Part shown: positions 280 to 63,769 of the stretch, one piece after another
Position numbering within the stretch: position 1 is the stretch's first letter
How the letters are laid out: each line of letters begins with the position of its first letter
DNA from: a virus
Taxonomy: Duplodnaviria; Caudoviricetes
Direction: 5' to 3' (one strand)
Virus record (IMG/VR): IMGVR_UViG_2907208306_000002
Span: 63,741 to 127,740 of that record
Length of the DNA: 64,000 nt
Made by a program: the position numbers and the translations under genes
Notes under the pieces: model-generated
What the model was told of the DNA's origin: nothing
Databases searched by the model: none
Seen by the model: only the letters and a program-made list of their open reading frames with translations

Positions 280-301
280 ATTGAAAGTGTGGGTGGGAAT
301 A

Positions 302-1312
302 GTGTCTAATGAAGTGTACAATGATTATTTATATAATGAAGAACAAAAGAAGAGATATCTTAAAGGATTGAATGAAAATACTTACACTACGTATCTAAGA
401 GTATTAAAAAGGGCAAGTAAATTAGAAAAACGATTAGGTAAGGATCTTTATAACTTCAACATACATGAGATAGAAGACTTATTAAGTTATCTTGCTCCAA
501 AGACACTCCAATCTGCACACGGTAGCGGCTCCATTATACAAAGTTATATAAGGTGGGCTATTAGTCAAGATTTGAGAGACGATAATTTAAATCCATTAGA
601 CGTTCTCGGAGGCTTAGATTTTTACGAACGGTTTGTTGATAAGACAAATAAACTTCTTATAACAGATGACGAATTGAAAGATATTGTAGGCGACTTAGAT
701 AATTATCAAGACATTGTGATTCCCATGGCTCTGTTTGAAGGAATAATGGGAAGGGAATACAGTGAATTATTAAATTTGACCTTAGAAGATATAAATCAAA
801 GGGAACACACAGTGCTGCTTAAGAACGAATTAAAAAACGGTGAAATTGAAACAAGGACAATAAAAATAAGGGAAGAACTTACAAGATATTTGGTCAAAGC
901 AGCTGAGCAGCAGATATACAGCCAGGACAATGGAAATAGTCGTGCTAAGAGTCCCAATGTTGAGCTAGTCGAAAGCCCCTTTATTATACGATCAGTAAAG
1001 AGAAGAGCAACTGTAAACGAGAAAGCTGATAAACACTTAGTCCTCAGAAGATTAAAGAACATAGGCATATGGAAAGGGCTTAAGCATCTAAGCGCAATTA
1101 ATTTGCGAAATTCAGGTATGCTCTATATGGCTAGAAACCTGTTAAATGAAGTTGAGCCGTATAATTCGCTGGATCGTGATAAAATTATCACTATTTGCCA
1201 GCATTATAATATTGGAAAACAATCAAACGATAGCGAATTTTATGCTTATACAAGGTACACACAGGACTTCTTAAATGAAGAAACCATAAGGAAGGTATAT
1301 GAGATAGAATAA
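302..1312 (+). CDS. Tyrosine-recombinase-fold protein, YopR/MrpR-like probable master repressor
   Basis: Integrase-like SAM region (KDLYNFN) and degenerate boxes LFEGIMGREYSELLNL and SAINLRNSG; start may be TTG281, ATA299 or GTG302. Confidence 0.7.
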   Translation: MSNEVYNDYLYNEEQKKRYLKGLNENTYTTYLRVLKRASKLEKRLGKDLYNFNIHEIEDLLSYLAPKTLQSAHGSGSIIQSYIRWAISQDLRDDNLNPLDVLGGLDFYERFVDKTNKLLITDDELKDIVGDLDNYQDIVIPMALFEGIMGREYSELLNLTLEDINQREHTVLLKNELKNGEIETRTIKIREELTRYLVKAAEQQIYSQDNGNSRAKSPNVELVESPFIIRSVKRRATVNEKADKHLVLRRLKNIGIWKGLKHLSAINLRNSGMLYMARNLLNEVEPYNSLDRDKIITICQHYNIGKQSNDSEFYAYTRYTQDFLNEETIRKVYEIE

Positions 1313-1348: not shown

Positions 1349-1377
1349 TTGACAGTGGAACAATCCGATGGTATTAT
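1349..1377 (+). promoter_or_regulatory. SigA promoter of the agr-like cassette
   Basis: TTGACA-17 bp-TATTAT with extended TG. Confidence 0.75.
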
Positions 1378-1423
1378 CAGTATATAAATTATTAATATAT
1401 TTACTTTGAAAGGATGATCAAGG

Positions 1424-2074
1424 GTGAATGCATTGGTATACATATTATTTTCAATGTTAGATGGAATAGCGATTTTTACATTTTCATTTGGTTTTTTTCG
1501 ATTGAAGATGATGGATTATTGGAAAGAGATAATAATAACAAATTTAGTAATATCGATTGGTACATTCTTCTATTCGGAAAACAACTTATTGTCAAACTTA
1601 TCACCGTTTATTAACTTAATAATTTTTATAGCTGCTCTAATTTTTTTCTTTAGAATTTCATTTTTCTCAGCGTTTAGAGTAGCCGGTTGCGGATTCCTGG
1701 CCCAAACAGTTATTTTAGGATTAGTTCTATCCATTACTTGCTTGGTATTAAATATAAGCCTTAATGAAATTAAAGAGCATGATTACATAAAATATCCACT
1801 TCAAGTGATTGGTGATATTGGAACTGTATTGTTAAGCCTAGTGTTACGTAAAAAGAAAATCTGGATGACTAACTTACCTTATTCGTATTCATTTAAGTTT
1901 AAGCCAAGCCGTATAAATGTCTTGATTTTTATAGCAACTATAATAGCAGCATTGGTAATCAGTCGGGCTTCATCAATAAACAATATTTATCTTGGACTAA
2001 TTTTTTGGATCATCTGCTTTGTTAATCTTTTATTCATGGAAATAAAGAAAGAAATGAGGGGAGAAATTGATTGA
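1424..2074 (+). CDS. Multi-pass membrane protein, possible AIP receptor (AgrC-sensor-like, no kinase domain)
   Basis: About 6-7 hydrophobic segments, no H-box or ATPase domain, overlaps agrB. Confidence 0.6.
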   Translation: MNALVYILFSMLDGIAIFTFSFGFFRLKMMDYWKEIIITNLVISIGTFFYSENNLLSNLSPFINLIIFIAALIFFFRISFFSAFRVAGCGFLAQTVILGLVLSITCLVLNISLNEIKEHDYIKYPLQVIGDIGTVLLSLVLRKKKIWMTNLPYSYSFKFKPSRINVLIFIATIIAALVISRASSINNIYLGLIFWIICFVNLLFMEIKKEMRGEID

Positions 2075-2609
2075 CCTTTTTAGTGATAAACTAAGTAGTT
2101 ATTTAAAAAATAAATACCCAGAAGAACTACCAGCCCTATCCATCGTCCGGTATTCCATTAAGTTTTTAATCTCTAATGTTTTACCAATCATAATCATCAT
2201 CTTAAGTTCAATTCTATTTCAAATGACTAAAGAAGTGGTTATAGGTTTGCTTGGGTTTTGTATACTCCGAATGTTTTCTGGTGGGTATCATGTTAAATCA
2301 GCTGAGTTATGTATTTTGACATCAGTAACAGTAATTTATCTCATTGCGATAGTGGGACAACAAATAAATAGTTACATGATTGTTTTGGACCTGATTAGTA
2401 TTATATTGGTTGGAATATATGCACCATCAAATATTAAAAAACAAACAAGAATTAAGGAAGAAAATTACCGTTATCTTAAACTGATGTCATTGATTATCGT
2501 AACGAGTAACATTTTTATACAAAGCAATATTCTCTCTGTAGCTTTTTTAATTCAATCAATAACGCTAATTAGAAATTTAAACTCTATGAAGGAGGTGAAA
2601 AGTGAATGA
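2067..2609 (+). CDS. agrB: AgrB-family peptide-processing membrane protease
   Basis: LRMFSGGYH...C catalytic His/Cys motif, YAP motif, hydrophobic. Confidence 0.92.
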   Translation: MIDLFSDKLSSYLKNKYPEELPALSIVRYSIKFLISNVLPIIIIILSSILFQMTKEVVIGLLGFCILRMFSGGYHVKSAELCILTSVTVIYLIAIVGQQINSYMIVLDLISIILVGIYAPSNIKKQTRIKEENYRYLKLMSLIIVTSNIFIQSNILSVAFLIQSITLIRNLNSMKEVKSE

Positions 2610-2731
2610 CGAAGCTAAATAAGGTAGCACTAGTTCTTGGAACAATTTTTACAGCTATTGCAACAACAGTAGCAAGTACAGCGAGCTGGACAATTCTTGG
2701 CACTGAAGAAGTACCTAACGAATTGAAATAA
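2606..2731 (+). CDS. agrD: AgrD-like cyclic lactone autoinducer precursor, 41 aa (absent from ORF track)
   Basis: RBS AAGGAGGTG, ATGA overlap with agrB; MTKLNKVALVLGTIFTAIATTVASTASWTILGTEEVPNELK has leader, TAS-xxxx core and EEVPxEL tail. Confidence 0.88.
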   Translation: MTKLNKVALVLGTIFTAIATTVASTASWTILGTEEVPNELK

Positions 2732-2748
2732 ACAAAACATTATAATAA

Positions 2749-2784
2749 TGCTTGCGTCTATATATGTAAAATTAGACGCAAGCA
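2749..2784 (+). terminator. Perfect 12-bp hairpin between agrD and LytTR gene
   Basis: TGCTTGCGTCTA-N12-TAGACGCAAGCA; no U tract. Confidence 0.45.
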
Positions 2785-2816
2785 AGGTATTATATATATA
2801 AGGGGGGGGATTAATA

Positions 2817-3197
2817 GTGTATAAAATTATTGTAGTGGGGAGAGAAGGAAAAAAAGTAAACGAAGATGCTGAATGGCTAGATATAGATGATGTTGTAGGA
2901 ATACACTCAGAGATGGTGAAGTATGGAAAATCAATTGTTATATTTAAGACTATGGATAGCGAATACATAGGCGCACACGGTATTGAAATGACAATGAAAT
3001 TATTTGAGGATCTTAAGGAATATAATTTTATTAGAGCAGACAGAGGTGTAATGGTTAATTTAAATAAGATTGAGTCAATTGATGAAAAGAACAAATTATT
3101 ATTTTACAATAATAAAAAAGATTCTTTTACAGTGTCTAAAACAAGATGGAACGAAGTTAAGGATCGTTTCATAAAAATTAATTGTATTGCGGATTAA
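2817..3197 (+). CDS. Stand-alone LytTR DNA-binding protein (no receiver domain)
   Basis: FIRADRGVMVNLNKIESID and VSKTR LytTR motifs; 126 aa. Confidence 0.85.
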   Translation: MYKIIVVGREGKKVNEDAEWLDIDDVVGIHSEMVKYGKSIVIFKTMDSEYIGAHGIEMTMKLFEDLKEYNFIRADRGVMVNLNKIESIDEKNKLLFYNNKKDSFTVSKTRWNEVKDRFIKINCIAD

Positions 3198-3267
3198 TCA
3201 TAAAAATCCGTACTTATTATAAATAAACATAATAATATAAAAATTAATCTAATCGGAAAAATTTAGA

Positions 3268-3296
3268 TTGATTTTGCCTTTTGGCAATAGTATAAT
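3268..3296 (+). promoter_or_regulatory. SigA promoter
   Basis: TTGATT-17 bp-TATAAT. Confidence 0.6.
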
Positions 3297-3302
3297 TAGG
3301 TA

Positions 3303-3316
3303 CAAACATAAGTTCG
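3303..3316. promoter_or_regulatory. LexA (SOS) box
   Basis: CAAACATAAGTTCG versus Firmicute consensus CGAACRNRYGTTCG; lies at predicted +1. Confidence 0.6.
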
Positions 3317-3411
3317 CATAAATTATAAATTCGACAGAAGACGACAAAAATTTGATAAGATTACCAACTAACAAGCGATGTCAAGAAAAATTCATAGGGT
3401 ACTTAATTTTA

Positions 3412-3439
3412 TTGCCTATTTCTAGTAATATTCTATAAT
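3412..3439 (+). promoter_or_regulatory. Second SigA-like promoter
   Basis: TTGCCT-16 bp-TATAAT. Confidence 0.45.
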
Positions 3440-3520
3440 AAAGTTAGGACCCTATCCCCTAGACAATTTATTGAGGTGAGGCTTATCGCCAGGAACACCG
3501 CTGCCAAAGGAGAATGCAGG

Positions 3521-3901
3521 ATGCTAGAGAGAGTAAAAAGGGCGTTGTGTATTGATGATGAAGCAATTAATCTGATGAAAACAATCGCTTTTCTCTGCGT
3601 GACAGCTCAGGAACAAGAGCAATTGATTGAAGAGTGCCAGGGCAAAGATTGTCAATACATTAATCGGTATCTAATAAAGCTTAGGAAAGAAAAAATCCTT
3701 AAGCTTGGCTATGATGATCAGCTTGATTTTTCAGAAGACTTTCAACGAAGCAAGATCTCCGCAATGGAGCGGTTATGTCAAGAGCCTTTGAACGAGTTTA
3801 AGTTGGCGAACCTTAAAAGCAATGATCCCGTGCATATATTTAATATACATAGACAGCGAGGACGATTCGTAAGATTCAACGAATTAGCTTTATACGCCTA
3901 A
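3521..3901 (+). CDS. Hypothetical protein, monocistronic, downstream of SOS box
   Basis: RBS AAAGGAG before ATG3521; ORF open from 3476. Confidence 0.7.
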   Translation: MLERVKRALCIDDEAINLMKTIAFLCVTAQEQEQLIEECQGKDCQYINRYLIKLRKEKILKLGYDDQLDFSEDFQRSKISAMERLCQEPLNEFKLANLKSNDPVHIFNIHRQRGRFVRFNELALYA

Positions 3902-4072: not shown

Positions 4073-4151
4073 GCGAGGTAATCTATCTGGTTGATAGAGG
4101 CGTTCTTATACAGCGTTATAGGGTTGGGTTCGATTCCCCCACCTCGTACCA
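4073..4151 (+). tRNA. tRNA-Ile(TAT) with irregular T arm
   Basis: Acceptor GCGAGGT/ACCTCGT, D stem TCTA/TAGA, anticodon loop CT-TAT-AC, TTCGATT loop, encoded CCA. Confidence 0.75.
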
Positions 4152-4152
4152 T

Positions 4153-4226
<74 letters not shown>

Positions 4227-4390
4227 TATTAAAATAACGTGCTCAGCACGATAACATATAGTTTCAGAAGCTTGATTCTGTAAAGGTGGTGATGTGAATC
4301 CAGAACCAGATGAGAAGTCCTCCCTTGTATAAAGTTCAGTCTCAGAATTAATATAAAACTAAAATACATATATAAGGGAGATATTAATTA

Positions 4391-63671: not shown

Positions 63672-63769
63672 AAAGCAAATTGAAAAAATATTAGGAAAGA
63701 ATATCTCGGATTCAGATTATATTGAATATTTAATTTATACGTATCAGCAGCTCAAAAAGGACGAAGAAA

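Follow-up and report, generated by a model that had tools for sequence, protein, structure and literature searches.

A kinase-less homolog of the AgrC sensor and a receiver-less LytTR regulator in an unusual Agr-type cassette beside the master repressor gene of an SPbeta-like Paenibacillus prophage

Agr is the textbook peptide quorum-sensing pathway of the Firmicutes, and is defined by the phosphorelay that runs from AgrC to AgrA. The 64,000-nucleotide stretch of viral DNA analyzed here (the window; positions 63,741 to 127,740 of the IMG/VR record IMGVR_UViG_2907208306_000002, equivalent to G000:C11:531799-595798) carries, directly after a gene for an MrpR-type master repressor, a four-gene cassette in which a sensor without a kinase and a regulator without a receiver accompany AgrB and AgrD. 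This combination is a real, functional-looking, and unusual form of Agr, and one that temperate phages have acquired repeatedly. The window covers the right half of an island of ~130 kb and ~35% GC (C11:467-597 kb) in a Paenibacillaceae genome of 7.9 Mb and 54% GC; the MrpR domains, a YopQ-sized DndB-like neighbor, and the length and low GC content of the island identify the host element as an SPbeta-like Paenibacillus prophage. The reading we prefer, at a probability of about 0.55, is that the cassette is an intact, selected, minimal Agr system, captured from a widespread chromosomal type, sited between the master-repressor gene and the next backbone gene, and signaling in the manner proposed below.

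A preliminary description, made from the letters alone, had reported the four genes next to the master repressor and a SigA promoter of their own, and all of its open reading frames (ORFs), as well as the promoter, were confirmed. MEM is our working name for the 216-amino-acid membrane protein encoded first in the cassette, which is laid out as follows.

1349..1377, plus strand: SigA-type promoter of the cassette (TTGACA, 17 nt, TG-n-TATTAT; 11/12 consensus matches and a TG extension)
1424..2074, plus strand: MEM, 216 amino acids (no Pfam family; seven-helix AlphaFold2 model)
2067..2609, plus strand: AgrB, the AgrD-processing membrane peptidase (PF04647, 1.8e-24; phrog_10353, 4e-29)
2606..2731, plus strand: AgrD precursor, 41 amino acids (TIGR04223, 1.2e-5)
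2741..2794, plus strand: strong hairpin between agrD and the LytTR gene (-22.5 kcal/mol, z -5.0)
2817..3197, plus strand: stand-alone AgrA-type LytTR DNA-binding protein, 126 amino acids (PF04397, 4.4e-9; no Response_reg)

The agrB start overlaps the MEM gene by 8 nt, through which AgrB is translationally coupled to MEM, and the agrD start overlaps agrB by 4 nt. None of 200 shuffles of the hairpin at 2741-2794 folds as well as the native sequence, and this structure is possibly an attenuator or a module boundary.

MEM has no match to a Pfam or NCBIfam family, and neither a DHp nor an ATPase domain was found in it, the protein ending after helix 7. All seven helices of its AlphaFold2 model (predicted local distance difference test, pLDDT, 92.9) are transmembrane, and the positive-inside rule gives a topology with the N-terminus out and the C-terminus in; the loop at 144-162 is basic and the C-terminal tail charged. 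An exhaustive HMMER search defines a family of 406 clusters at 50% identity, the best 150 of which are all 116-231 amino acids long, mostly 205-230, with none of kinase length; a further search, aimed at longer fused forms, came up empty, which is weak evidence. Given this uniform short length and the lack of fused forms, MEM is a stand-alone family and not a broken gene. When 401 genomes of the class were searched with a wider profile, built from 120 members, it matched stand-alone MEMs in three families. It also matches, in other families of Bacilli, the N-terminal ~205 residues of frames of 406-467 amino acids, each directly upstream of agrB, the hidden Markov model matches spanning profile positions about 3-207. 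Nine of these longer proteins carry invariant H-, N-, and G-box residues, and both of those scanned against Pfam match SPOB_a and HATPase_c. Alignment of MEM with the sensor halves of genuine AgrC-type kinases (hhalign) gives a probability of 98.5% (E 3.8e-15, 147 columns), and a KK-x-W motif after helix 5 is common to the MEMs and the kinase sensor halves. Because of these profile matches and this alignment, MEM is a kinase-less homolog of the AgrC sensor, drawn from an agr lineage with the order sensor-B-D-regulator.

Only two residues of MEM, S10 and Q98, are nearly invariant, and the protein has no protease- or transferase-type motif. Fold searches with the model returned generic helical-bundle matches only (Foldseek best E 0.38; VIA-wide best Z 8.2, to Pex3); matches so unspecific are no evidence of a new fold. 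A search of the ESM Atlas with MEM recovered only unnamed clusters of Bacillota. Elsewhere in the Bacilli, loci L212-L217 and L227 encode proteins of 406-450 amino acids in which a MEM-like sensor is joined to a soluble C-terminal half of ~200 amino acids, with a coiled coil and an LRH-like motif and without a Pfam kinase or ATPase match; downstream lie AgrB and a full regulator with receiver and LytTR domains. These proteins may be pseudokinase intermediates between AgrC and the stand-alone MEM.

The other end of the cassette is reduced in a corresponding way. The AlphaFold2 model of the 126-amino-acid protein (pLDDT 88.8) superposes over its whole length on the LytTR domain of Staphylococcus aureus AgrA (4g4k, 3bs1) with template-modeling scores of 0.80-0.83 and root-mean-square deviations of 2.4-2.5 A, and Foldseek returns the same two structures at a probability of 1.0. 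When homologs from the same position were scanned against Pfam, LytTR was found in 33 of 35 and Response_reg in none of the 35. No part of this regulator could accept a phosphate or bind a ligand by a known mechanism.

The absence of a kinase, first noted for the window, extends to the whole prophage, and no receiver domain was found across its ~130 kb either. PF14501 has no match in it, the nearest lying ~390 kb past the window end. The 461 ORFs of C11:466-598 kb were searched with an AgrC-type kinase profile and with 12 kinase and regulator queries (ten host kinases, one AgrC, and one LytTR response regulator); nothing was found except MEM itself, which the kinase profile picks out at 7e-6, while in the positive control a host kinase scored 8e-20. 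Nor does the host genome contain an AgrC-like kinase. With a sensor that lacks the kinase half and a regulator that lacks the receiver half, a signal therefore cannot pass by phosphotransfer. The preliminary description had proposed a phosphorylation-independent system, and, judged by domain content, such a route is the only one permitted.

The architecture is not confined to this prophage. A gene-neighborhood search, suggested as a check in the preliminary description, recovered all four genes together in chromosomes as well as in other phages and prophages. MEM is present in 223 of 401 Paenibacillaceae genomes, spread over 15 of the 19 genera, and often one genome has between two and five copies. 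AgrB is next to MEM in 95 of 101 sampled chromosomal loci, usually with a 3-nt overlap; a recognizable AgrD occurs in about 80 of these loci and a LytTR-only protein of ~125 amino acids in 84. The arrangement recurs across this chromosomal sample and eight phage or prophage loci, which is far beyond chance. The host carries a second copy of its own (C24:361123-362805), and the prophage and host copies contain the only two AgrB genes in the genome. Conversely, MEM is absent from all 25 canonical agrB-D-C-A loci sampled in the family, and no AgrC-like kinase was found in any of the 41 MEM loci examined with 5-kb flanks. Since MEM loci and kinase loci are mutually exclusive in these samples, the pair of sensor-only and DNA-binding-only proteins and the pair of kinase and response regulator are alternative complete sets. 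The module is thus a widespread chromosomal system that phages have captured, and not a phage invention.

Patterns of substitution suggest that the module is maintained. In every pair of loci tested, nonsynonymous differences per site (pN) fall far below synonymous differences (pS) for all four genes; for the prophage pair L105/L107, the ratio of nonsynonymous to synonymous substitution rates (dN/dS) is 0.06 for MEM, 0.15 for AgrB, and 0.20 for AgrD. These values show purifying selection on all four genes, whose order is likewise conserved. They also bear on the suggestion that the cassette is merely what remains of a decaying agrCBDA operon, with a truncated agrC and a truncated agrA and no function. 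Such decay would leave pieces of this kind, MEM matching AgrC over its N-terminal half and the LytTR protein matching AgrA over its C-terminal half; the frames, however, are intact and uniform in length in hundreds of genomes, pN is far below pS, and the two losses always occur together, all of which make a remnant highly improbable. The preliminary description had itself named a truncated agrC as a finding that would refute its proposal, and MEM is indeed homologous to AgrC, but it belongs to a conserved stand-alone family under purifying selection.

MEM also tracks the peptide, as sequence comparison shows. In the close chromosomal pair L080/L087 the LytTR proteins are 91% identical, whereas MEM and AgrB are both only 60% identical and the predicted peptide rings differ (CWTFW vs. 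CWALF). In staphylococci, agrB, agrD, and the sensor part of agrC form a hypervariable block, and the divergence in this pair matches that pattern. Two pairs with identical rings have MEM, AgrB, and LytTR identities of 94, 86, and 76% and of 80, 70, and 60%, respectively, so that MEM is conserved as well as or better than the other genes when the ring is the same. Across pairs, MEM and AgrB identities fall together as ring mismatches accumulate, in comparisons that are phylogenetically dependent and compatible with a receptor and a biosynthetic partner alike.

Prediction of the peptide followed from alignment of 83 AgrDs on their xPxELL tail, with a spacing from ring to tail proline that we take to be that of S. 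aureus AgrD. Of the 83, 82 have a ring-forming residue five residues before the inferred cleavage site: 71 have a Ser, in 10 cases once the anchor had been corrected by one residue, and 11 have a Cys. The remaining one, L191, is off register. In the AgrD of the window, the ring position is a Ser, the ring reads S-W-T-I-L, and the tail after the inferred cut is GTEEVPNELK; the predicted autoinducer is accordingly a Ser-lactone with the ring SWTIL. Rings in five related prophages are SWTIV, SWTVI (two), and SWTLI (two). The ring of the host chromosomal copy is SPVYV. Two isolated phages depart from this register: the peptide at the AgrD position in phage Harrison (L139 4513-4638) has neither a hydrophobic leader nor a Ser or Cys where one would be expected for the ring, and that of phage Abouo (L138 4519-4644) has its Ser six, not five, residues before the inferred cut.

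Under the proposed mechanism, AgrB would make and export a lactone peptide, probably cyclo(SWTIL) with a short exocyclic tail. MEM would bind this peptide from outside, as its homology to AgrC sensors and its co-divergence with AgrD suggest, and would pass the signal by direct contact, holding the LytTR protein at the membrane through the conserved basic loop and C-terminal tail, in the manner of the membrane anti-regulators that act on stand-alone LytTR proteins; peptide binding would make MEM release the LytTR protein, or the reverse. The contact step is proposed because phosphotransfer is impossible, because LytTR regulatory systems offer an analogy, and because the cassette has no other component. 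More speculatively, the freed or sequestered LytTR protein might set the activity of phage promoters, such that the density of lysogens or infections would feed into an MrpR-controlled switch between lysis and lysogeny.

Several observations weigh against this mechanism. MEM is coupled to AgrB and diverges at its pace, which fits a biosynthetic partner as well as it fits a receptor. In L105/L107, pS is 0.35 for MEM-AgrB-AgrD and 0.86 for the LytTR gene, and in L080/L087 the order is reversed; the first three genes and the LytTR gene can thus have different histories, which would be unexpected for a tightly co-evolving pair. About one-sixth of MEM loci have no adjacent LytTR gene. The hhalign comparison of MEM with AgrC sensors from the canonical B-D-C-A loci of the Paenibacillaceae gives only 13.8%, with no detectable likeness; homology emerged only with kinases from other families in which the gene order is sensor-B-D-regulator. 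Finally, the regions preceding 49 operons were crudely scanned for direct repeats as candidate LytTR boxes, and no 10-mer pair with a spacing of 19-24 bp was common to them, so that the scan pointed to neither autoregulation nor a target. The promoter of the cassette looks constitutive.

Some of the same evidence would suit a different role for MEM, as an accessory to AgrB in processing, export, or self-protection rather than a receptor, with the LytTR protein a co-expressed transcription factor that is controlled by other means, or is not controlled. The MEM and agrB genes overlap by 3-8 nt in nearly all loci, their products diverge together, and some loci consist of MEM, AgrB, and AgrD without a LytTR gene; moreover, the AgrBs linked to MEM are shorter (~170-180 amino acids) than canonical AgrBs of the same family (~190-230). 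But the homology of MEM is to the sensor half of genuine AgrC-type kinases, whose position in the operon it also occupies, and two near-invariant residues without an enzyme motif are what a ligand-specific sensor would be expected to show. Canonical loci also make their peptide without MEM, and AgrB and AgrD suffice for production of the canonical Paenibacillus polymyxa peptide in Bacillus subtilis (PMC12180512). An accessory function seems distinctly unlikely.

A more specific assignment of MEM was also considered and rejected, namely that it is AgrE, the peptide N-acetylase of P. polymyxa (PMC12180512): the locus encoding the ICFGLF-containing AgrD of that paper lacks MEM. At that paenibacillin/agr locus, in a P. 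polymyxa-type genome (G415), a gene directly after agrA (L258:12007-12801) encodes a TraX-family membrane protein (PF05857, 1e-32). TraX acetylates F-pilin, and by analogy this TraX-family protein is likely the peptide N-acetylase AgrE/PaeN. An exact-match search with a published agrB primer gave no match.

The setting of the cassette within the prophage bears on what it might control, and its immediate surroundings are these.

281..1312, plus strand: MrpR/YopR-like master repressor gene (PF22822, 1.3e-28; PF22823, 5.8e-15; phrog_5830, 1e-79)
about 1304-1337: AT-rich hairpin and T-run 3' of mrpR, read by eye; a terminator scan made no call
3476..3901, plus strand: conserved downstream gene with promoters of its own and no Pfam family

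Five further SPbeta-like prophages, from another GTDB genus, share synteny with this one at ~35-45% protein identity, making six prophages in total. Their shared order is a Myb-like gene, MazF, a helix-turn-helix (HTH) gene on the minus strand, a 59-amino-acid ORF, a YopQ-like gene, MrpR, MEM, AgrB, AgrD, LytTR, and the homolog of 3476-3901, which follows the LytTR gene in all five relatives; a TTGAC-type -35 box occurs at the equivalent site in the same five. In MrpR prophages without the cassette (e.g., L240), the 3476-3901 homolog instead lies directly after mrpR, and the cassette is therefore an insertion at this point. Gene 3476-3901 is a candidate output gene, but it is part of the phage backbone and not of the cassette.

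Similar genes occur at other MrpR loci and in other phages. About 10 of the 30 MrpR loci of the family have Agr-type genes immediately downstream of mrpR. The four cassette genes are also found beside the integrase in Brevibacillus phage Abouo (gp44-47) and in the lysogeny region of the Paenibacillus larvae phages Harrison and Paisley (gp38-41), in Harrison again beside the integrase. The membrane proteins of Abouo and Harrison match the MEM profile at 2e-13 and 1.5e-11, and their regulators are annotated "peptidase," yet have LytTR matches of ~1e-6. Isolated phages were found only by the AgrB query; searches of the phage collection with the cassette (blastn), and with MEM and the LytTR protein (tblastn), returned nothing. 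Two MrpR loci, L250 (G358) and L256 (G393), encode a LytTR-like protein of ~165 amino acids with an N-terminal extension directly after mrpR, with no MEM or AgrB within the 1.5 kb examined, a third mode of association between LytTR regulators and MrpR.

It is possible, if rather unlikely, that the signaling mechanism is as proposed and that the phage copy nevertheless serves as a lysogenic-conversion module (moron), acting on host physiology or interfering with the MEM/LytTR system of the host itself, instead of steering the lysis-lysogeny decision. In favor of this, the cassette brings its own promoter and terminator and is inserted ahead of a backbone gene that elsewhere comes directly after mrpR; PHROGs classifies MEM under moron, auxiliary metabolic gene and host takeover; the paralogous host system could engage in cross-talk; and the Harrison cassette lies among toxin-like accessory genes. 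On the other hand, placement in lysogeny-control regions recurs in three unrelated phage types, and after mrpR the genes occur in three orders (MEM-AgrB, AgrB-MEM, and with the LytTR gene first). The phage ring SWTIL differs from the host SPVYV at four of five positions. Furthermore, AimR, described as a core gene of SPbeta-like phages (PMC10516654), is missing: the preliminary description had advised looking for it upstream of the window, and no AimR-like protein was found among the 10 larger ORFs scanned in those 20 kb, while the best hit to NF038310 in the whole genome scores 17 bits against a cut-off of 70, which the B. subtilis control passes.

A role for the cassette in the lysis-lysogeny decision is a hypothesis drawn only from its position and from the absence of AimR. 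In its fullest form, which is tentative and on balance unlikely, the cassette would provide phage-to-phage communication in place of arbitrium in AimR-less SPbeta-like phages, with phage-specific Ser-lactones (SWTIL, SWTIV, SWTVI, and SWTLI) as dialects, and with a kinase-less AgrC sensor at the membrane that gates a DNA-binding domain by sequestration and so biases the MrpR switch.

Other features of the region may be relevant to this switch or independent of it. The 20 kb upstream of the window contain GIY-YIG genes, a methyltransferase gene, MazF, an XRE-type HTH gene, and a 436-amino-acid DndB-like gene of YopQ size. The PemK/MazF toxin gene (PF02452, 1e-22; G000:C11:529006-529828) lies ~2-3 kb upstream of the window, shortly before the YopQ-like and MrpR genes, convergent with the XRE-type HTH gene and without an obvious antitoxin, and is kept in all six prophages. 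Its conservation is of note in that phi3T arbitrium acts via the host MazEF. The leader of gene 3476-3901 (window 3198-3475, with homologous regions in L103-L107) contains motifs strongly conserved in the six prophages: a -10 box, then a LexA-type GAAC-N4-GTTC box, which in the window copy reads AAAC-N4-GTTC, then a tandem TTCGACA-N5-CGACA resembling Spo0A boxes, and then a second promoter with a TTGTCA -35. Such motifs would be in keeping with a gene on which SOS and sporulation signals converge. After the conserved gene, tRNA-Ile (anticodon UAU) and tRNA-Arg (CCU) lie back to back at 4073-4227, a pair that fits an AT-rich phage in a GC-rich host.

Comparison with known systems indicates which parts of the module are familiar. 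With canonical Agr, as in Staphylococcus or in the agrBDCA operon by the paenibacillin cluster of P. polymyxa (PMC12180512; PMC13700820), the cassette shares AgrB, an AgrC-type sensor, an AgrA-type LytTR domain, an AgrD whose five-residue ring begins at Cys or Ser and whose acidic tail is of the xPxELL type, and a specificity block that is hypervariable and adjoins a conserved regulator. It differs in lacking the DHp/ATPase half and the receiver half, in its order (sensor-B-D-regulator), and in that no direct repeats like those of P2/P3 were found. The likeness to streptococcal LytTR regulatory systems drawn in the preliminary description holds in part. HdrRM and BrsRM of Streptococcus mutans likewise pair a receiver-less LytTR protein with a co-transcribed membrane protein and act independently of phosphorylation. 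There, however, the regulator gene comes first with the membrane inhibitor directly after it, 9-bp direct repeats are present in the operons, the membrane proteins belong to other families such as DUF2154, and the systems have no known signal (Zou et al., 2018; PMC6193735); in the cassette the AgrC-sensor homolog is encoded first, agrB and agrD lie between it and the regulator, the cognate peptide is in the operon, and the crude scan found no shared operon repeats.

Among phages, phiCDHM1 of Clostridioides difficile carries agrB, agrD, and agrC (Hargreaves et al., 2014; PMC3901668), and so shares AgrB and AgrD in a temperate phage, but has a full kinase and no regulator, unlike the cassette. 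The same paper reports, in one passage, agr cassettes in the Brevibacillus phages Davies, Emery, and Abouo, and suggests that their membrane proteins may be AgrC homologs without the ATPase domain; it mentions no LytTR partner and no test (PMC3901668). Phage genome papers name only AgrB, the P. polymyxa work concerns canonical agrBDCA (PMC12180512; PMC13700820), and no paper on the kinase-less chromosomal system was found in the literature searched. New with respect to Hargreaves et al. (2014) are the LytTR-only fourth gene, the proof of homology, the chromosomal prevalence, and the link with MrpR in AimR-less SPbeta-like prophages. Arbitrium (AimR/AimP/AimX) is likewise a peptide module beside yopQ/mrpR-type repression genes, with slightly different peptides in related phages; its proteins are unrelated, and its linear peptide is imported and bound by a cytoplasmic tetratricopeptide-repeat receptor, whereas the peptide of the cassette would be cyclic and is probably sensed at the membrane, with no AimX-like output identified.

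The Agr partners described here keep only their signal-facing and DNA-facing halves, and do so in hundreds of genomes. If the module signals, a peptide receptor must be able to couple to a transcription factor without phosphate, and Agr would be tied to the orphan LytTR regulatory systems, whose inputs are unknown, giving them a natural ligand to study. For phage annotation, the "peptidase" of Abouo and Harrison should be read as the regulator and the "membrane protein" as the sensor. The module has been captured repeatedly into the lysogeny-control regions of unrelated temperate phages, among them phages of P. larvae, a pathogen of honeybees, and an SPbeta-like lineage that lacks arbitrium, and a second, unrelated class of viral peptide communication thereby becomes directly testable with a synthetic five-residue lactone. 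If phages do communicate by this route, an Agr pathway independent of phosphorylation would be seen for the first time, as would a viral quorum signal sensed at the membrane.

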